A DNA stretch of 10,716 nucleotides from Candidatus Methanofastidiosum methylothiophilum (GCA_001587715.1 LNGC01000051.1:1-10716), one strand, 5' to 3'. Shown: positions 2,810-10,576, counted from the stretch's first letter. A program made the numbers and translations. The notes: a model not told the origin generated them from the letters alone.

Positions 2810-3880
2810 ATGGAGAAAGTTGCAGAAGCTACAAGGGAGAAAGTAGCAATAGATGAAGCTCTGTTATGTTACCTTATAGAAAAATCTGGAATAAAAAATT
2901 TAGATGAATTTGAATTATGGGTAAAGGGAGAAGTAGAAATTAAGCCCAAAGTAGAACATGCCCATATTAAAAAAAGTAAAAAAATAAAAGTTGAATTTAA
3001 ACCAAACCCAAACTTAGGAGAAGCAGGGGCAACCAAGGAAGAATTAAACTATAGGCAAGTTCTTATTTTATACTTAAAACCAGTTTGGGATTCAGCTAAG
3101 AAAATAATTATAGAGAGCGATTTATCACTACAAGAAAAACATGTAGAGATAAATAAATTAATTGAAAATTTTATATCCAATGTTCAAAAGGTTGCACAAT
3201 CTACAGTAACAAGTAGGTATAATGCAGGGTATACCCGGATGGAAGGGTATGTAAAGAAAGCTAAATACAAAATACCTTCACGACCCAAAGAACAACCTAG
3301 ACTTGATACTTTACTCCTACAGCAAACTATGAATATAGAGGATATTGGATTAACATTAAGGGGTAAGTTAAGACAAATCCTAAATATAAAAGCAGTCCAA
3401 GATTTTTATGAACAAGGAAGAGAAGGAAAACCAGACCCGGAAAAAATAAAAAAAGCAGTTCCAAAACCTAATTGGACTGTATGTATGAAAAGAGTAGCTA
3501 AAGAACACCCTGAATGGTCAGAGGCAGAAGTTAAAAAATGGTGTGAAGTCTTTGCTTATGAGGAAGAAATTGATAAGGCAGTAGATGACAGTAAGAGAAG
3601 GGTTGATGCCATAGGAATGTTTGGATTTCTGGAATCAGATAAAGCAGGATACCTTCAAGCTGCATTATTATTATCAGTAGGAATTACAGAACTTACAATG
3701 AAAATTCCATGGGTAACTATGGGAGATGCTAATGTATGTTCAGACTGTTTAGCTAGGGAAGCAGAGGGGCCATATTATCCAGAAGATTACCCGGAAGACC
3801 AACACTATGGTGAAAGATGTGTACCCGGTGAACCTGTATTTTTCAAAGGAGTATTAGAGGATGTGTGGGATTATGCATAA
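2810..3880 (+). CDS. Putative minor head / head-morphogenesis protein (Mu F / SPP1 gp7-like)
   Basis: It sits downstream of the portal. The C-terminal region QHYGERCVPGEPV resembles the conserved H-x-N-C-R-C-x-x-x-P signature of Phage_Mu_F domains, and a nearby CSDC cysteine pair is present. SD is AGAGG. Confidence 0.45.
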   Translation: MEKVAEATREKVAIDEALLCYLIEKSGIKNLDEFELWVKGEVEIKPKVEHAHIKKSKKIKVEFKPNPNLGEAGATKEELNYRQVLILYLKPVWDSAKKIIIESDLSLQEKHVEINKLIENFISNVQKVAQSTVTSRYNAGYTRMEGYVKKAKYKIPSRPKEQPRLDTLLLQQTMNIEDIGLTLRGKLRQILNIKAVQDFYEQGREGKPDPEKIKKAVPKPNWTVCMKRVAKEHPEWSEAEVKKWCEVFAYEEEIDKAVDDSKRRVDAIGMFGFLESDKAGYLQAALLLSVGITELTMKIPWVTMGDANVCSDCLAREAEGPYYPEDYPEDQHYGERCVPGEPVFFKGVLEDVWDYA

Positions 3881-3995
3881 AGAAATAAGAGCTTATTGCA
3901 CAGCATGTAAAAGGGAAGTTAAGTTAGACCAGGTTAAGCCAAATATTATGAAGATTATTGGAACCTGTAAATGTGGAATGTTATTTAGGAAGTAA
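3873..3995 (+). CDS. Zinc-ribbon micro-protein of 40 aa (MHKEIRAYCTACKREVKLDQVKPNIMKIIGTCKCGMLFRK). It is absent from the supplied ORF track.
   Basis: The ATG at 3873 overlaps the stop of the preceding gene (ATGCATAA), suggesting coupling. The frame is clean to TAA at 3993-3995. It carries C-x2-C-x19-C-x-C, a classic four-Cys zinc-ribbon spacing. It fills the otherwise empty 3881-4014 gap and shares the orientation of the operon. Confidence 0.45.
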   Translation: MHKEIRAYCTACKREVKLDQVKPNIMKIIGTCKCGMLFRK

Positions 3996-4014
3996 AAGGG
4001 AGGGATAAAAATAG

Positions 4015-5073
4015 ATGCCATTTGAAGGGGATAAATATATTCATTTGCCAAACCCAGAACATCCTGAATCTGATTTTAGAAGATTGGGAAATGGTAATTT
4101 AAATATAGTTGCTACTCAAAACTTTGGAAGAGGTATTAAGGCAAGAATAGGATTGCTTAAAGGTACCAACGATTCAACAGCGGTAGTAGTTTATTTATTC
4201 GATAAAACCAAGTGGGGAATGGCAACTGCTAAAAAATGGATAAAAAACCATACTCAAAAAGGAAGTGGATATATGGAAGTTAAATCAATAAGTGGAAGTT
4301 TTAATTTTGTAATGCCATTTAAAAAAGCTCAAGAAGAGGAAGATGGGTATTACTATCTAGAATATGCACTAAGTACAACTGACCCGGACTTAATAAATGA
4401 CCAAATTACAGAAGAATGCATAGATGACATGATAAAACAAGCCCCCAAGCTAAACAGTTTTATGAGCCATAATTATGACAAAGTAATAGGGCCAATAATC
4501 AAAAGCTGGAAAGAAGTAACCGAAAAAGCAACGGAGATGTGGATAAAAGTTAGGGTAAAACCAAGTATGCGGAAAGAGATAGAAGAAGATATTAATACAG
4601 GGGTAAGGTATGGGGGAAGTATTGGTGGCGAGTTTATAAAAGGATATCAGGAAGGTGAGATAAGAAAAATAGAAAAAGTGCAACTAATGGAGGGGAGTTT
4701 AACGACAATGCCTATGAACTGGGCAACTAGTGGTTCAGCGAGGCAGGGGATAGCTAAAGGGTGTCCAAATAATATTTGCACCCAAATTTTAAAATCAGCA
4801 GATATTAAATTTTCAGGAAAAGATATAGGAGTTGATAGTATTCCTAACATGGAATTGATTAAAGAAATTAATAAAATAAGTTTAGAATTAAAAGCTGTAA
4901 CAATGTTGCCCGGATGGCCAGAAGAATTAGATAGTGTAATAGACACAGATAAAGCTCAACTGATGGATACCCTAGGAACACTAGTAAACAATTTAATAAG
5001 ACTAGTGGAAGATATAATAAAAGAAGAAGGAATATCCATAGAAGAGTTGCAAGCAGTGGCAGAAGCAGCTTAA
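4015..5073 (+). CDS. Prohead maturation protease (HK97 gp4 / peptidase S78-U35 family) with N- and C-terminal extensions
   Basis: Strong SD (GGGAGGG). The catalytic-His region NSFMSHNYDKVIGPI matches the l-f-n-H-d...iG motif. The catalytic-Ser region YGGSIGGEF matches S-I-G-F. About 85 aa lie before the protease core and about 110 aa after it; the C-terminal part is helix-prone and delta-domain or scaffold-like. It is located upstream of the scaffold and MCP. Confidence 0.7.
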   Translation: MPFEGDKYIHLPNPEHPESDFRRLGNGNLNIVATQNFGRGIKARIGLLKGTNDSTAVVVYLFDKTKWGMATAKKWIKNHTQKGSGYMEVKSISGSFNFVMPFKKAQEEEDGYYYLEYALSTTDPDLINDQITEECIDDMIKQAPKLNSFMSHNYDKVIGPIIKSWKEVTEKATEMWIKVRVKPSMRKEIEEDINTGVRYGGSIGGEFIKGYQEGEIRKIEKVQLMEGSLTTMPMNWATSGSARQGIAKGCPNNICTQILKSADIKFSGKDIGVDSIPNMELIKEINKISLELKAVTMLPGWPEELDSVIDTDKAQLMDTLGTLVNNLIRLVEDIIKEEGISIEELQAVAEAA

Positions 5074-5113
5074 GAAAAAGCAAAAAGGATAAGTTTTTTA
5101 GGAGGACAAAACC

Positions 5114-5830
5114 ATGAAACAAAAAGGTAAAGAAAATGATACTCAGGGAGAAGATGAAAAAATGGGGTTACTAAAGAAAACCTTAAGTACCCTAAAAGAG
5201 GTTAAAGATGCATTAACTGGAGAGGAAGGGAACCCCGGTGAAGAAGGGAATCCTGGAGAGGAAGGGAACCCCGGTGAAGAAGGGAATCCTGGAGAGGAAG
5301 GAAACCTAGAAAACCCTGCAGAAGAAGATGGAGAAGGGGAAGAAGGGGAAGGTGAAACATTGAAACCAAAAGATGTAAAAAGTATCCTTAAAAGGATAGA
5401 TGCCCTAGAACAGAAAGACTATAATCAGGAAAAAATAATCAAAAAACAGGGAGAAACAATTAAAAAACAAAACAAAACAATTGAAACCCTACAATCAGAT
5501 AAAACAGAAAAAATCCACAAAGGATTAGTCAAAGAAGCCCTTACATGTTCCAAAAAACTCAATGATACAACTGTTACCGATGAAAAATCCTTAGAAAAAG
5601 CTGTAAGGAAAGAACTAGATATAGACAAAGAAAAAGAAGTTACCGATGCAGACATTAACACCTATGTAAAAGGACTAAAGATAGCAATGAAAAGGATACC
5701 CGATGGGTATGTACCAATAATAACAGATGAAACAGTCCAGAAAGAACAGGATAAAACCAAACAAAAAATCAAAAAAATGAGAGAAAATATGAGTAAACAT
5801 GGGGTAGTTGGGGCAGAGGAATCTGAATAA
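5114..5830 (+). CDS. Putative scaffolding protein (238 aa, highly charged, with an (EEGNPG)5 repeat)
   Basis: SD is TAGGAGG. The composition is extremely K/E-rich and coiled-coil-prone (KEVKDALTGEEG..., IIKKQGETIKKQNKTIETLQ). The gene lies between the protease and the capsid gene, which is typical scaffold position and composition. Confidence 0.6.
   Translation: MKQKGKENDTQGEDEKMGLLKKTLSTLKEVKDALTGEEGNPGEEGNPGEEGNPGEEGNPGEEGNLENPAEEDGEGEEGEGETLKPKDVKSILKRIDALEQKDYNQEKIIKKQGETIKKQNKTIETLQSDKTEKIHKGLVKEALTCSKKLNDTTVTDEKSLEKAVRKELDIDKEKEVTDADINTYVKGLKIAMKRIPDGYVPIITDETVQKEQDKTKQKIKKMRENMSKHGVVGAEESE
5221..5310 (+). repeat. In-frame tandem repeat. A 36-nt unit (gaggaagggaaccccggtgaagaagggaatcctgga) occurs twice perfectly, followed by a degenerate third copy. 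It encodes EEGNPG five times.
   Basis: Direct reading: 5221-5256 and 5257-5292 are identical; 5293-5310 diverges (gaggaaggaaacctagaa). Confidence 0.9.
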
Positions 5831-5859: not shown

Positions 5860-6312
5860 ATGCAAAACATGGGATACCAACCAGAATATGGACATAGGTT
5901 AATAAGGGAAAGGTTTGTAGAAACCGGTGAAACAATACCTTACTACCGCATTATAAAACAGGGTACAACTGAAACCAAAGTTAAATTAGGAACTTTAGGT
6001 TGCAGACCCCTAGCTATTTCCATTCCCTCAGAGGAAGCATTCATGCCAAATGGTTCCGGTGGGATAGTACCTAGAACCGGATATGTAGCGGGTGAAATAC
6101 CAGAAGCACAAATGACAGGAATAGCATTTGTAGAACTAGCAGAAACTGTAAGCCAAGGAGAATTATGTGGGTCAAGTGCCAACGGAAGAGGAATAGCAGT
6201 TGAATTATCCCTAACAGGTATGAACACTGAAATAGGAACTGTAGCAGGCACATTCCTAGAAGGTGGAGATGCAGGGGATATAGTAAGAGTAGACATGGAC
6301 AGGAGGCAGTAA
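5860..6312 (+). CDS. Hypothetical Gly/Ala-rich beta protein. Possibly a head decoration or capsid accessory protein, judged by synteny only.
   Basis: SD TAGGAGAT lies 8 nt upstream. The gene sits between the scaffold and the major capsid gene, as lambda D does relative to E. Its stop overlaps the MCP start (TAAGATG), suggesting coupled expression. No motif recognised. Confidence 0.3.
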   Translation: MQNMGYQPEYGHRLIRERFVETGETIPYYRIIKQGTTETKVKLGTLGCRPLAISIPSEEAFMPNGSGGIVPRTGYVAGEIPEAQMTGIAFVELAETVSQGELCGSSANGRGIAVELSLTGMNTEIGTVAGTFLEGGDAGDIVRVDMDRRQ

Positions 6313-6313
6313 G

Positions 6314-7207
6314 ATGGGATTACTAACTGATGCAGCAATTAACTATTATGAGTTAATAATGCTGGAAGAAATAGAACCAAACCTAGTAGGAACTCAAGTT
6401 ATAGCAAAAGCCCCCGATATACCAGTAGGTGCTCAGCAAGTTACTAGGGATGAAATTGCAAAACTGAAAGGTAAAGCCAAAAAGGGTAAAAAAGGTCAGC
6501 CCATTCCTAGAGAAACTGGAGATGTATCTAGGAAGACTGTATTAATCCCTGAAATAGCTCACGGTTTCACCCTACACCGGAAGGACATCCAAGCTTCCCA
6601 AAGGGCAGGAACACCCCTACCAGATGCAGCTGCAAGGCAGTCCTCAAGATTAGTTCTAGAAGCCATAGAAGATATGGTATTTAATGGGATACCAGAACTA
6701 AAAATTAAGGGAATCTATGCTGATGCAGCGGATACCTATGCTGTGGAAGATGGTTATGAGTGGAATAGTTCAAATGCCCAACCATTTAATGACATGATTG
6801 CAGCTATGGGGCAACTAGCAAGCTCTGGGAAGTATATAGGAAAAAAATTAATACTTTCTCCTTTAGCTTATTGGTCAGCACATAAAACTAACACCCTAGG
6901 AGTTAGCTATATGGACCAGATTGCCAGTTTATTCCCTAACGGAAAAGCTGACATATTCCAAGCTCCTTCTACTGCTAACGGTGGAGAAACTATTATCCCT
7001 GTTGATGGTGGGGTTCTCTGCGACTTTGGGAATGGTATAGCTGAAAGGTATGTAGAAGAAGAGGTGAACCTGCAACAGGACTTTGGAATGGATGAAAATA
7101 ACTTATTCCCATTCAATGTTCTAACCTACCAGTCTCAGGATATACACCGGACAGAAGCATTCCTTAAGCTAGATAACTTGATTGATGTAGACCTATTAAC
7201 CCCATAA
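6314..7207 (+). CDS. Putative major capsid protein (HK97 fold, 297 aa)
   Basis: It is the last gene of the terL-portal-protease-scaffold series and is coupled to the upstream ORF. Its size is typical for compact HK97-like MCPs. A T-rich terminator-like tract follows it, as is common after highly expressed capsid genes. I did not verify the fold. Confidence 0.55.
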   Translation: MGLLTDAAINYYELIMLEEIEPNLVGTQVIAKAPDIPVGAQQVTRDEIAKLKGKAKKGKKGQPIPRETGDVSRKTVLIPEIAHGFTLHRKDIQASQRAGTPLPDAAARQSSRLVLEAIEDMVFNGIPELKIKGIYADAADTYAVEDGYEWNSSNAQPFNDMIAAMGQLASSGKYIGKKLILSPLAYWSAHKTNTLGVSYMDQIASLFPNGKADIFQAPSTANGGETIIPVDGGVLCDFGNGIAERYVEEEVNLQQDFGMDENNLFPFNVLTYQSQDIHRTEAFLKLDNLIDVDLLTP

Positions 7208-7220
7208 AGGGATTAATAGG

Positions 7221-7242
7221 TATTTTTTTATTTTTTTTTATT
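7221..7242 (+). terminator. Oligo-T tract (T7-A-T9-A-TT) immediately downstream of the capsid gene. It may be a terminator or attenuator, of archaeal oligo-T type or a weak intrinsic one.
   Basis: Read directly as tatttttttattttttttttatt. Only a weak 3-bp stem (ccc-ataaa-ggg) precedes it, so a canonical bacterial hairpin is not evident. Confidence 0.3.
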
Positions 7243-7254
7243 AAATAAAGGGAG

Positions 7255-7746
7255 ATGAAGCCAATGCCAGAAGAAGAAGGAAAAAAGGTAGAAGCTACTG
7301 GAACTATTTTGGAGGAAATAAATAGTGAAGAAGAAGCAGATAAAGCTATAGAAATTGCACAACAAAAAAAGGCAGAGCTAAAAATTAAACAGCATGAAAA
7401 AGAGCTAAGGAAAATTAAGTGCAAATGTGGAAAATCTTTAAAAGTAAATCCTAAAGATTTCATGGGAAGAGATGGAACCAGAGCTAAGAGATATACCTGC
7501 GAAAAATGCCAGTTACAAACTAAAGTCCAAGTAACATATAATAAGGAACTAGGAGAACTAGAACTTAAAATTAATAGGTTACAAAAAGCATGGGTAGAAA
7601 TGCACCCAAGCAAATTATCCGATGACCAGATAAAAGAATGGGTTAAGGATGAAGTGGAAAACCTAAAAAGAGGAAGGAGTAAGTTTCCAAGGAAAGAAGA
7701 GCAGATATTACTTAGGGCAATAGATTTAGCGATAAATCCAAAATAA
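7255..7746 (+). CDS. Zinc-ribbon plus coiled-coil protein, 163 aa by the track. The functional start is more likely Met4 at 7264, which has better SD spacing.
   Basis: It carries C-x-C-x23-C-x2-C (KCKCGKS...YTCEKCQ). Charged helical regions flank the ribbon. AGGGAG lies 9 nt upstream of ATG 7264. Oligo-T tracts bracket both ends of the gene. Confidence 0.6.
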   Translation: MKPMPEEEGKKVEATGTILEEINSEEEADKAIEIAQQKKAELKIKQHEKELRKIKCKCGKSLKVNPKDFMGRDGTRAKRYTCEKCQLQTKVQVTYNKELGELELKINRLQKAWVEMHPSKLSDDQIKEWVKDEVENLKRGRSKFPRKEEQILLRAIDLAINPK

Positions 7747-7789: not shown

Positions 7790-8197
7790 ATGACTAATGC
7801 AGTATATAGTAAAGCTAAAGAGAAAATGTTACAAGCAGGAATTGACTTAGTAACTGGAGATGTTAAGGCAATACTTGTAGATACCCTTAATTATTATGTA
7901 GATTTAGAAAACCATGATTTCCTAGACGATATTCCAGTTGTTGCAATAACTGCAACTAGTCCAGTATTAACTAATAAATCCATAGCAGGGGGGGTATTTG
8001 ATGCAGATAATATAACCTTTACATTAGTATCTGGGAATGAAAGTGAAGCTATAATATTATATATAGATACTGGAACTGAATCAGAAAGCCCACTTATAGC
8101 ATATATTGACACTGCAACAGGACTTCCAATAACCCCTAACGGTGGAGATATAGTAATAGAATGGGATAACGGAGCTAATAAAATTTTCAGATTATAA
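7790..8197 (+). CDS. Small beta-rich conserved virion-protein candidate (135 aa), encoded just upstream of the fibre gene. It may be a fibre-attachment or adaptor protein.
   Basis: SD GAGGTGGG at -8. The C-terminal motif TPNGGDIVIEWDNGANKIFRL and the central FDADNITF...ILYIDTG pattern look like a conserved phage structural family seen upstream of fibre genes. That recognition comes from memory and is not verified. Confidence 0.5.
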   Translation: MTNAVYSKAKEKMLQAGIDLVTGDVKAILVDTLNYYVDLENHDFLDDIPVVAITATSPVLTNKSIAGGVFDADNITFTLVSGNESEAIILYIDTGTESESPLIAYIDTATGLPITPNGGDIVIEWDNGANKIFRL

Positions 8198-8215: not shown

Positions 8216-10576
8216 ATGACAATAACTGGTAGTGGAACCTCTGCTGACCCTTATATAATTTATACCCTAGATGATTTGGCATTAATAGGAACTAGTCCTT
8301 ATACTTTGAATAAATATTTTAAGTTAAATAATGATATTGATGCCAGTCCTACTCAAGACCCTAGTTATAATGGAGGGACAGGTTGGAATCCAATAGGGAA
8401 TAGCACCACTAAATTTAGTGGAAATTTTAATGGGAATAATAAAACCATATCAGGATTATTTATTAATAAACCTACAACCGACAATATAGGTTTATTTGGA
8501 TACACCACTACAGGATTTAGTATTTATAATCTTATTTTGGAAGTAGATATTACTGGACAGAATAATGTAGGGGGATTACTAGGGTATTATGATGAGGTAA
8601 GTAATAGTGATGGGGATAGGGTATGGGGAATAACAGTACATGGAGAAGTAACTGGGAATAACCAAGTAGGAGGAATTGTTGGGGTTAAAGCCCACTATGG
8701 GTATATTGATGATTGTTATTCTGATGCAGTGGTTTCCGGTGCAAACCAAGTAGGAGGGATATTTGGACAACTTTTAAACCTTGGTTATAGGGGAATTGTT
8801 AAGTATTGTGATTTTGATGGAGTAGTTAATATTTCCGGGAGTAGAGGGGGATTAATAGGGGGGGAAGCTAATCAAGATGTTACTTATTGTAATGCTTATG
8901 GAGAGTTAAATGCCTCAGCAACTAGTGATTATATAGGAGGAATAATAGGATATGATATTAGCGAAGATATTAGTTATTGCAATTGCTATTCTAATATAAC
9001 TGGTAGAAATTATGTTGGAGGAATAGTAGGAACTAAAACAAAATACAATGCAATTAGTTTCTGTAGGGCTTACGGAGTAATTACTGGTAATGAGAGGGTA
9101 GGGGGTATTGCAGGACACCATGGAACTAGGGGTTATGGAAGTACATTACAAGATTGTTATTTTAGGGGAGAAATAAATGCAACTGGAAATTATGTAGGAG
9201 GCATTGCAGGGAGTTGTAGTTGGTTAATTCAAAGATGTTTAGTATCAAGTGATACAGTAATTAACAGCCCTAATTCAAGTTATGTGGGGGGAATTGTTGG
9301 ATTAGGTAATCATGGCCCGATTAATAATTGTATAAACCTTATAGATATTAATGGGATAGATTATGTGGGGGGCATTGCAGGGAAGAAGGAATTATATGAT
9401 AGTTATGTGGAAGTTCAAAACTATGGAAACATTACCGGAAGGGATTATGTAGGGGGAATTACTGGATACTTTTCTAATTATGATTATGCCCAAGACCACA
9501 AACAATGTATAAACTATGGAAACATTACTGGAAGGAATTATGTAGGGGGAATAGCAGGTAGATGTGACTGTAGGAATTGGGAATGTTATAATAGGGGAAA
9601 AGTATCTGGGCAAAATAATGTAGGGGGAATATTTGGGCATTTATATTCAAAATATATAAGTAGAGCATATAATACAGGGCAGGTTATAGGAACAGGAACA
9701 GGAATAGGGGGATTAGTTGGAAGCATTAGTGGGAGTGGGGGGGATACAAATAGTTTCTGGGATGTTGAAACTAGTGGAATAGCTATAAGTGCAAGGGGTA
9801 CAGGAAAGACTACAGCAGAAATGAAAACCCAATCAACATATACAGGATGGGATTTCACGACCCCAGTATGGTTAATTAACCCTATTTTCAATGATGGTTA
9901 TCCTTATTTAAATATTCCTAAATTTATTAGAGTTTTATCCCCAAATGGGATTACTTCTACAGAAGGATTAGGGATTCCTCTAATCAGAATAACAGTCATA
10001 CATATTATGGCAAATGGAGTTCCTTCTACTCTTCTATTTGGAATACCTAAACTTTCTGCCATACTCAGAATACAGGGCATAGATGGAACTATACAGCTAG
10101 GAATTTTTAAAACCTTAATGGAAGTTGCACTCAAAGGGAAAGGAATTAAACTATTAGATTTTGGTACTTTAAAAACATTGATGGAAGTAAGGGTAGTAGA
10201 TGGGGGAATCCCTAGTAGTATTGAACTAGGAATCCCAATGGCAATGTATCAGATAAGCCCAGAGGGAATAGACAATAGTATCACTATGGGAACTATTACA
10301 TTAATCTGGGATGAATTTATTAGACCTAATGGATTAGATTCATTTATTAGTTTTGGGGAATTAGTAACTTATATTAGATATTGGAAGGAAAATATTGAGT
10401 TTACATTAAAAGGAAGTAAAACTAATTTTGACCAAGTAGGGGGGGATATTAGATTTTTAATAGAAACCCCTAGTACAGAATTTGAACTTAAAAAACCTAC
10501 TACCCGGTTTGAATTAATACAACCAAGGGCTGGAACTAAGTTAAAATCTCAGACAATTTTTGAATTAAGAAAATAG
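8216..10576 (+). CDS. GLUG-repeat fibre or adhesin-like protein (786 aa), a candidate receptor-binding protein
   Basis: The N-terminal module GSGTSADPYIIYTLDDLALIG...YFKLNNDIDAS...WNPIGN...FSGNFNGNNKTISGLFINKPTTDNIGLFG is the typical head of GLUG-domain surface proteins. It carries 14 repeats of about 29 aa built on N-x-V-G-G-(I/L)-x-G (residues about 116-510), the closing motif TYTGWDFTTPVWLI...GYPYL, then about 7 repeats of about 22 aa (NG-I-x-S-x4-G-I-P-x6-I) and three FEL mini-repeats at the end. No HExxH or other protease motif was found. Confidence 0.85.
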   Translation: MTITGSGTSADPYIIYTLDDLALIGTSPYTLNKYFKLNNDIDASPTQDPSYNGGTGWNPIGNSTTKFSGNFNGNNKTISGLFINKPTTDNIGLFGYTTTGFSIYNLILEVDITGQNNVGGLLGYYDEVSNSDGDRVWGITVHGEVTGNNQVGGIVGVKAHYGYIDDCYSDAVVSGANQVGGIFGQLLNLGYRGIVKYCDFDGVVNISGSRGGLIGGEANQDVTYCNAYGELNASATSDYIGGIIGYDISEDISYCNCYSNITGRNYVGGIVGTKTKYNAISFCRAYGVITGNERVGGIAGHHGTRGYGSTLQDCYFRGEINATGNYVGGIAGSCSWLIQRCLVSSDTVINSPNSSYVGGIVGLGNHGPINNCINLIDINGIDYVGGIAGKKELYDSYVEVQNYGNITGRDYVGGITGYFSNYDYAQDHKQCINYGNITGRNYVGGIAGRCDCRNWECYNRGKVSGQNNVGGIFGHLYSKYISRAYNTGQVIGTGTGIGGLVGSISGSGGDTNSFWDVETSGIAISARGTGKTTAEMKTQSTYTGWDFTTPVWLINPIFNDGYPYLNIPKFIRVLSPNGITSTEGLGIPLIRITVIHIMANGVPSTLLFGIPKLSAILRIQGIDGTIQLGIFKTLMEVALKGKGIKLLDFGTLKTLMEVRVVDGGIPSSIELGIPMAMYQISPEGIDNSITMGTITLIWDEFIRPNGLDSFISFGELVTYIRYWKENIEFTLKGSKTNFDQVGGDIRFLIETPSTEFELKKPTTRFELIQPRAGTKLKSQTIFELRK
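8561..9745 (+). repeat. Array of 14 GLUG-type coding repeats, with period about 81-99 nt
   Basis: The VGG(I/L) cores fall at residues 118, 151, 179, 211, 240, 267, 295, 327, 357, 384, 412, 443, 469 and 497 of the 8216 ORF. Near-identical DNA copies exist, e.g. 9424-9461 versus 9524-9561 (ctatggaaacattac[c/t]ggaagg[g/a]attatgtagggggaat). Confidence 0.85.
9944..10396 (+). repeat. C-terminal array of about 7 coding repeats of about 22 aa (NGITSTEGLGIPLIRITVIHIMA, NGVPSTLLFGIPKLSAILRIQGI, DGTIQLGIFKTLMEV..., GGIPSSIELGIPMAMYQISPE, GIDNSITMGTITLIWDEFIRP, NGLDSFISFGELVTYIRYWKE)
   Basis: Read from the translation. The pair FKTLMEVALKGKGI / LKTLMEVRVVDGGI is also visible as similar DNA at about 10108-10150 and 10168-10210. 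Confidence 0.6.

Follow-up and report, generated by a model that had tools for sequence, protein, structure and literature searches.

A 40-codon, four-cysteine gene between the MuF-like and protease genes in the head operon of a likely archaeal tailed virus

Introduction

Does the short interval between two head genes of an uncultivated virus hold a gene of its own, and if so, what might the product do? The question arises in a 10,716-nt stretch of DNA from "Candidatus Methanofastidiosum methylothiophilum" (GCA_001587715.1; LNGC01000051.1:1-10716), which we analyzed at its full length and refer to as the window. The window carries a head-morphogenesis module that consists, in order, of a terminase gene, a portal gene, a MuF-like gene, a small open reading frame (ORF; positions 3873 to 3995), a protease gene, a scaffold gene, a gene for a 150-amino-acid (aa) protein, a capsid gene, and further genes. 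A preliminary description of the window had proposed that the small ORF is an unannotated zinc ribbon gene. Comparison with related contigs (identified below by L numbers) leads us to conclude that it is almost certainly a genuine protein-coding gene, missed by the annotation of the record, and we weigh here what its four-cysteine product may do.

The source of the window is likely an archaeal tailed virus, because its relatives occur on IMG/VR viral contigs and because one distantly related contig has a gene for a zinc ribbon of the TFIIB type. The sequence was binned with "Ca. Methanofastidiosum," a methanogen, which is the candidate host. A megablast search with the whole window returned no match in 50,697 phage records, and scanning 185,579 reference genomes twice, with alignments of the MuF-like and the portal proteins, detected no provirus relatives.

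Results

Layout of the small gene

On the plus strand, the small ORF extends from an ATG at positions 3873 to 3875 to a TAA at positions 3993 to 3995 (i.e., 40 sense codons and the stop codon), and its product is predicted to be MHKEIRAYCTACKREVKLDQVKPNIMKIIGTCKCGMLFRK. The four Cys codons are located at 3897 to 3899, 3906 to 3908, 3966 to 3968, and 3972 to 3974 and yield the arrangement C9-x2-C12-x19-C32-x-C34. Upstream lies the 356-aa MuF-like gene (2810 to 3880, plus strand), with its TAA at 3878 to 3880; relative to that gene, the small ORF is read in the +1 frame. The ATG therefore lies within the final codons and stop of that gene, in the 8-nt overlap ATGCATAA (3873 to 3880, plus strand). 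From the end of the 356-aa gene to the start of the protease gene at 4015, we measured a gap of 134 nt (3881 to 4014), which is filled by the small ORF. The codon count, the overlap of ATG and stop, the Cys spacing, and the length of the gap were all as the preliminary description had given them, in the sequence as well as in the translation.

The overlap is kept as ATGCATAA or ATGCATGA across all ORF-bearing relatives, which is the layout expected for translational coupling. An SD-like (Shine-Dalgarno-like) GAGGA (3857 to 3861, plus strand) is located 11 nt 5' of the ATG, within the upstream coding sequence. GAGGA or GAGGT is kept 10 to 12 nt 5' of the ATG in all three lineages of ORF-bearing relatives and presumably serves as a ribosome-binding site. 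In the 19-nt spacer 3' of the small gene, a second SD-like sequence, GGGAGGG (3998 to 4004, plus strand), precedes the protease gene, and the relatives have a matching purine-rich stretch there (GGGAGG, GGGAG, or GGAG). No promoter-like or terminator-like site was detected on the plus strand between the flanking genes, and such sites were fewer overall than in shuffled sequences.

A mechanical ORF list gave a 44-aa version of the ORF that begins at an ATG at 3861. We rejected this version and placed the start at 3873 because the ATG at 3861 is not conserved among the relatives: L002 has an in-frame TAA 6 nt 5' of the conserved ATG, and the L003 group has no upstream in-frame start codon. The resulting protein would have a mass of 4.7 kDa, and its tryptic peptides would include EVKLDQVKPNIMK. 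It is basic in the window (pI, approximately 9.7; net charge, approximately +6.5) and across all lineages (pI, 9.7 to 10.0; net charge, +6.5 to +7.6).

Conservation across related contigs

Orthologs of the small ORF were found at the identical junction in L002/L013 (a 57-kb IMG/VR contig), L003 (= L010), L004, L007, L008 (36.6 kb), L009, L011, and L012. The set comprises at least eight contigs from at least seven samples and represents five distinct sequences that group into three lineages. Gene calls for the orthologs already existed in JGI, ENA, and Logan assemblies, where they appear as "hypothetical protein" or without a name. The ORF of the window is itself unannotated, as the preliminary description had stated: neither its 40-aa nor its 44-aa sequence was present in a collection of 15 billion proteins, which does contain a neighboring protein of the same NCBI metagenome-assembled genome (MAG) record.

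Of the 40 alignment columns, 25 are invariant, i.e., the four Cys and 21 others, and the sole indel is an in-frame deletion of one codon in L002. In all close relatives, the ORF is open, the overlapping start is the same, and the four Cys are kept. Conservation of the ORF and its Cys quartet had been named beforehand as a check, with stop codons, frameshifts, or loss of Cys in homologous regions as signs against a gene; the check was borne out in every close relative, and no such sign was seen.

The substitutions follow the pattern of a coding sequence. Between lineages, the dN/dS ratio of the small ORF (Nei-Gojobori) was 0.10 to 0.24, and pS was 0.41 to 0.67. Synonymous sites were near saturation (pS, 0.65 to 0.67). 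The dN/dS ratio was similar to those of the flanking MuF-like gene (0.13 to 0.14) and protease gene (0.08 to 0.11). The synonymous excess was significant (Fisher P values of 2e-6, 9e-6, and 3e-3), and variable columns were distributed over codon positions 1, 2, and 3 as 10, 10, and 21. Each of the other five frames contains stops in at least one lineage, so that the frame of the small ORF alone is open in all. One of these frames includes an antisense ORF (3893 to 4051, minus strand; 83 aa in L003), which we rejected because stops interrupt it in the other lineages. An RNA element in place of a gene was likewise rejected: no Rfam family matched the region, its folding energy was no better than that of shuffled sequences (z, +0.99), and the near-saturated synonymous sites argue against it.

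We also simulated 200,000 random 140-nt stretches with the dinucleotide makeup of the window. An ATG-initiated ORF of at least 38 aa occurred on one strand in 2.0% of these stretches, and one with such a Cys quartet occurred in a fraction of 5e-6. Cys accounts for 10% of the small protein versus 1.1% of the residues in the large ORFs of the window. Given the orthologs, the purifying selection, the invariant Cys, the sole open frame, and the lack of an RNA signal, positions 3873 to 3995 almost certainly constitute a real gene, as far as comparative sequence evidence can tell.

Sequence family and predicted fold

The two Cys pairs form knuckle-like motifs. The first, C9-T-A-C12 (3897 to 3908, plus strand), is invariant as Y-C-T-A-C-K-R in all lineages, and the second, C32-x-C34 (3966 to 3974, plus strand), is followed by an invariant G-M-L-F-R. 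Two short Cys pairs, as in a zinc ribbon, are thus invariant in the five distinct sequences; the second pair of the zinc ribbon fold is usually CxxC, whereas the small protein has CxC. An AlphaFold2 (AF2) model (mean pLDDT, 83) contains four beta-strands (residues 5 to 9, 14 to 22, 25 to 31, and 37 to 39). In this model, the CxxC motif is located in the turn between the first two strands, and the CxC motif is located in the turn between the last two. Fold matches were not significant; the weak top structural matches include zinc ribbons of Rpb9-type RNA polymerase subunits and topoisomerase I. We consider it probable that the protein is a metal-binding module with a zinc ribbon fold. The two Cys pairs, which the model places at the hairpin tips, most likely hold one Zn2+ ion that would stabilize the fold.

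Sequence searches placed the small protein in no described family. Pfam, PHROGs, and NCBIfam searches returned noise only, with no Pfam match at E values of up to 10 for any of the three lineages, and a profile search against all PDB sequences gave nothing significant. A tblastn search of the small protein against phages, which had been named beforehand as a check, gave no match. A word-indexed search of 5.8 billion proteins recovered one protein (95% identical), and when 1.84 billion representatives were scanned exhaustively with HMMER, one cluster only was recovered, which is itself an ortholog. The small protein is an orphan limited to one small clade of uncultivated tailed viruses.

Several candidate memberships were considered and rejected. 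Residues 3 to 22 (3879 to 3938), which include the knuckle KEIRAYCTACKREVKLDQVK, resemble the N terminus of archaeal eL42/L44e, with E values of 3.7 to 4.4 that are not significant; only these residues align, and we did not assign the protein to that family. Membership in Ogr/Delta found no profile match at E values of up to 10, and the spacing is CX2CX19CXC. The preliminary description had brought in phage late regulators as a parallel, and this link found no backing in a match to Ogr/Delta or to any other family. Membership in Lar (PF14354) was rejected in the absence of a Pfam match within the same limit in the three lineages; some of the best fold matches in BFVD bear the name "Restriction alleviation protein" but are not significant (E, 0.45 to 0.84). 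The length of 40 aa fits the archaeal C(P)XCG proteins, but neither of the motifs CTACK and CKCG is a strict C(P)XCG.

Variation at the junction

Two more distant groups show the same head module without the small ORF. In L005 and L006, whose MuF-like proteins are 40% identical to that of the window, 27 nt separate the MuF-like stop from a gene for a 656-aa protease-scaffold fusion. In L014, whose portal protein is 44% identical, the MuF-like gene encodes 270 aa; next come a 57-aa ORF that lacks Cys, approximately 2.4 kb of reverse-strand ORFs, a gene for a 599-aa protease-scaffold fusion, and the capsid gene. Neither in L005 nor in L014 did a profile of the small ORF detect a copy anywhere. 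Because both keep the module without the small ORF, members of this virus group differ in what lies between the MuF-like and protease genes, and the small ORF is a lineage-specific accessory. The statement in the preliminary description that the ORF is not a standard component of a head operon thus proved apt.

The junction sequence of L014 (8136 to 10662) comprises the 57-aa forward ORF and seven reverse-strand ORFs (82 to 138 aa), none with a Pfam match, and appears to be an accessory cassette inserted between the MuF-like and protease-scaffold genes. Farther upstream, 5' of its terminase gene, L014 has two tiny ORFs with Cys quartets (2470 to 2610 and 3421 to 3549; 46 and 42 aa). In L005, a zinc ribbon of the TFIIB type scores above the Pfam cutoff (PF08271; 31.8 bits) in a 208-aa protein (203 to 829), which hints at archaeal infection by the virus group.

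Neighboring genes

The 356-aa protein upstream of the small gene is called MuF-like by its position after the portal gene. Its acidic C terminus carries W-V-T-x-G-D-A-N-V-C-x-D-C ... H-Y-G-E-R-C, and this CxxC...H...C pattern fits the motif of the MuF family. The label adopted in the preliminary description rests on this motif and the postportal position and was not confirmed by any profile: neither the protein of the window nor its L005 homolog matched PF04233, TIGR01641, or any other Pfam or NCBIfam entry. In addition, tblastn with the MuF-like protein gave no match in the 50,697 phage records, and its AF2 model (pLDDT, 45.6) was unusable for a fold search.

Downstream of the small gene, positions 4015 to 5073 (plus strand) encode a 352-aa S78/HK97-type prohead serine protease (PF04586, E = 7e-6; TIGR01543) with an extra N-terminal domain of 86 aa. 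This domain (residues 1 to 86; 4015 to 4272; YLFDKTKWGMATAKKWIKNH) has no Pfam match, is present in L014 (37% identity, starting at residue 6), and is absent from L005, whose protease begins at the residue aligned with M87 of the window protein. A search with the N-terminal 104 aa of the protease returned no candidates. We considered coinsertion of the small ORF with the 86-aa domain, given that L005 lacks both, and rejected it because L014 has the domain without the ORF.

The next gene (5114 to 5830) encodes an acidic, repeat-bearing, scaffold-like protein of 238 aa. An 18-nt tandem repeat (5217 to 5306; 4.9 copies) encodes (GEEGNP)n in its N-terminal part, and the L002 protein has a different acidic low-complexity stretch (TEEE rich) in the same place. 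The protease and scaffold-like proteins are thus encoded by separate genes in the window clade (4015 to 5830; 352 and 238 aa) and are fused in the distant relatives (L005, 6300 to 8270, 656 aa; L014, 10933 to 12732, 599 aa).

After the gene for the 150-aa protein, positions 6314 to 7207 encode a capsid protein of the HK97/encapsulin fold (PF04454), and positions 7255 to 7746 encode a 163-aa protein with CxC-x23-CxxC and no family match. This gene lies directly 3' of the capsid gene in every relative, including those without the 40-aa ORF. Its homologs are located at 6227 to 6715 in L002, 9761 to 10258 in L005 (CxxC-x26-CxxC), and 14155 to 14649 in L014 (CxxC-x22-Cx4C). The 163-aa protein is a core, unexplained Cys4 component of the head module with variable Cys spacing. 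Paralogy with the small ORF was rejected, given that the small-ORF profile finds exactly one copy per locus and misses 7255 to 7746. The preliminary description had pointed to this gene as a second zinc ribbon; unlike the small ORF, to which it is unrelated, the gene belongs to the core of all relatives.

The 135-aa protein encoded at 7790 to 8197 belongs to phrog_644 (E = 3.7e-42; function unknown), which is the only strong match of the window to a known phage family. A 786-aa protein (8216 to 10576) contains many N/D-Y/x-V-G-G-I/L-x-G units, with a weak match to the Pfam GLUG motif (E = 0.014); it is probably a fiber or adhesin-like tail protein and is diverged in L002.

At the other end of the window, the portal-position gene (1356 to 2798) encodes 480 aa and is preceded by the gene for a T7-type large terminase, with an ATPase part that ends at 815 (NF033889) and a nuclease domain at 857 to 1366 (PF17289). 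This gene (1 to 1366) is broken near 800 to 860: the ATPase part, which is cut off by the 5' end of the window, stops at 815, and the coding sequence resumes in another frame (NEINATEDIKLAPP), followed by the ATG at 857. L008 has a single intact terminase ORF of 494 aa (5999 to 7483) through the same sequence. The break has the appearance of a one-base frameshift within an A/T-rich run, for which assembly error, decay, or recoding could account. Farther 5' in L008 (3338 to 5418), genes for a ParB_N-domain protein and a radical-SAM protein immediately precede the two terminase genes (small and large).

Discussion

The account that we favor, with moderate confidence, is that the window contains a real Cys4 gene, coupled to the head operon, whose product is a lineage-specific binding module. 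Having no promoter or terminator of its own, the gene would be carried on the late structural transcript. Ribosomes that end on the MuF-like gene would then reinitiate at the overlapping ATG, and the small protein would be made alongside the head proteins in comparable amounts. We propose such termination-reinitiation coupling because the start overlaps the stop, GAGG(A/T) is conserved, and promoter-like and terminator-like sites of its own are lacking. Translational coupling of genes that overlap is an established phenomenon in both bacteria and haloarchaea. The product, a small basic module stabilized by zinc, would act in head assembly or travel in the virion. For a Cys4 hairpin module of 40 residues, binding is nearly the only activity to be expected. 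The strong positive charge suggests binding to nucleic acid or to an acidic partner, which might be packaged DNA, the very acidic N terminus of the scaffold, or the C terminus of the MuF-like protein, likewise acidic. A role in head assembly or in association with the virion is the part of this account that we hold most tentatively, at somewhat less than an even chance.

Several points weigh against this account. Translation of the small ORF is argued from sequence comparison, and operon position, which links the protein to the capsid here, is weak functional evidence. The ORF is dispensable to the module, given that L005 and L014 have the same head gene set without it. The frameshifted terminase may mean that this copy comes from a nonviable virus. 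With regard to zinc, of 14 Haloferax microproteins of the C(P)XCG type that were purified, no more than 9 held the metal, 5 were zinc free, and AlphaFold2 was unable to tell which (PMC11241148); by analogy, these zinc-free cases would weaken a prediction of zinc binding from motif or model.

The small protein could instead be an antidefense or host takeover ("moron-like") accessory, made late or carried in the virion, that neutralizes restriction, CRISPR, or another defense component of the host, or some other host protein. We judge this unlikely. It would fit the varying content of the junction (27 nt in L005, the small ORF in the window clade, and the 57-aa ORF with approximately 2.4 kb in L014), the confinement of the orphan to one clade, and the mention of restriction alleviation among the best, nonsignificant BFVD matches; furthermore, the equivalent junction of Mu-like Pseudomonas phages houses anti-CRISPR operons (PMC3993853). 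However, the small ORF has neither its own promoter nor an Aca-like regulator, and it is co-oriented and probably translationally coupled with a structural gene. It is also strictly orthologous within the clade and constrained like the capsid genes, which is not the behavior of a swapped cassette, and it has no Pfam match to Lar or to any other entry. Late expression, moreover, would fit poorly unless the protein were packaged. The more specific idea that the junction between the MuF-like and protease genes is an accessory slot, i.e., an archaeal counterpart of the anti-CRISPR locus, and that the small protein, made with the head proteins and possibly packaged and injected with the DNA, serves in counterdefense or host manipulation strikes us as rather improbable. 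If it were true, new antidefense genes of archaeal viruses could be sought at the junction, which carries the small ORF in one clade and the 57-aa ORF with its reverse-strand cassette in L014.

There is also a small chance that the basic ribbon is a nucleic acid-binding regulator, which tunes late transcription or the translation of protease and scaffold. The strong positive charge, with conserved K13, R14, K17, K22, and R39, and the weak likeness of a knuckle to the RNA-binding eL42/L44e (E of about 4) point in this direction, and small archaeal zinc finger proteins that regulate an adjacent gene are known, e.g., Brz (PMC2253796). Nevertheless, the likeness to eL42 is not significant, no match to Ogr/Delta or another regulator family was found, and a place in the middle of the operon, and not ahead of the late operon, would be unusual for a regulator.

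It is highly improbable that the peptide itself is irrelevant, i.e., that the ORF arose by chance or serves as a ribosome relay from the MuF-like gene to the protease gene. An ORF of this length is expected in approximately 2% of random 140-nt stretches, and the ORF spans the distance between the two genes almost exactly; still, the pattern of substitution (low dN/dS at near-saturated synonymous sites, an invariant Cys quartet with 21 further invariant residues, and an in-frame indel only) largely refutes this explanation, the quartet was extremely rare in the simulations, and L005 joins the two genes with 27 nt, so that no relay is needed. Least credible of all is a recoded C-terminal extension, in which a programmed frameshift would fuse the ribbon to some MuF-like molecules: the ORF is in the +1 frame and overlaps the MuF-like gene, and MuF family proteins often have variable C-terminal extensions, but a stop in the small-ORF frame 6 nt (L002) or 15 nt (L003 group) 5' of the ATG confines the shift to a window of 11 to 23 nt, the three lineages share no slippery sequence there (AAATTATG, GGATTATG, and GGAATATG), and the conserved ATG with GAGG upstream is simpler.

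For a specialist, little of this finding is surprising. The virus of this poorly known lineage of methanogens gains one small gene that is supported by selection. In addition, one more orphan family joins the large set of tiny Cys4 proteins that archaea and their viruses encode, and for most members of this set no role is known. The finding also illustrates that length cutoffs in the annotation of MAGs hide real, selected genes even in well-understood virus modules. The tight coupling proposed here limits the plausible roles to those of an assembly cofactor, virion cargo, or a late accessory. Of wider interest as a lead is the variation at the junction of the MuF-like and protease genes.

Comparison with known systems

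In Mu-like Pseudomonas phages, anti-CRISPR operons are located between the homolog of Mu G and the protease/scaffold gene (PMC3993853). The place directly 5' of the protease/scaffold gene, the small orphan proteins, and the variable content are analogous to what we observed at the junction of the window and its relatives. However, the Mu-like loci have their own promoter and a helix-turn-helix (HTH) regulator (aca) and are swapped between near-identical phages, whereas the junction of the window has a single, probably coupled ORF that is orthologous and under purifying selection in three lineages, and its 134 nt are too few to accommodate a second gene. The Mu-like junction is a positional precedent and not a demonstration. 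Gene I of phage Mu itself encodes a fused protease-scaffold, like L005 and L014 and unlike the window clade.

Among small phage proteins, the late transcription activators P2 Ogr and P4 Delta are four-Cys zinc proteins, comparable in this respect to the predicted zinc ribbon described here. They are approximately 70 to 80 aa long with the pattern CX2CX22CX4C, form their own Pfam family, and are encoded outside the head operon.

Haloarchaeal C(P)XCG microproteins are acidic, whereas the small protein is very basic. One-domain zinc finger microproteins of this general kind (<70 aa, with a single four-Cys site) are common in archaea and often unannotated (PMC6562870, PMC10716476, PMC11241148, PMC2253796). 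The C(P)XCG proteins HVO_2753 and HVO_0758 of Haloferax volcanii and Brz of Halobacterium are tiny four-Cys proteins, like the small protein, but they have no sequence homology to it; the small protein has C-T-A-C-K and C-K-C-G and is encoded by a virus, in a capsid operon. In fold, the small protein may resemble classical zinc ribbons (e.g., the C-terminal ribbons of Rpb9 and TFIIS, the N-terminal ribbon of TFIIB, and those of topoisomerase I), which recur among its best but weak structural matches and in which the knuckles are located at hairpin turns that flank a small antiparallel sheet, an arrangement that the AF2 model would predict for the small protein.

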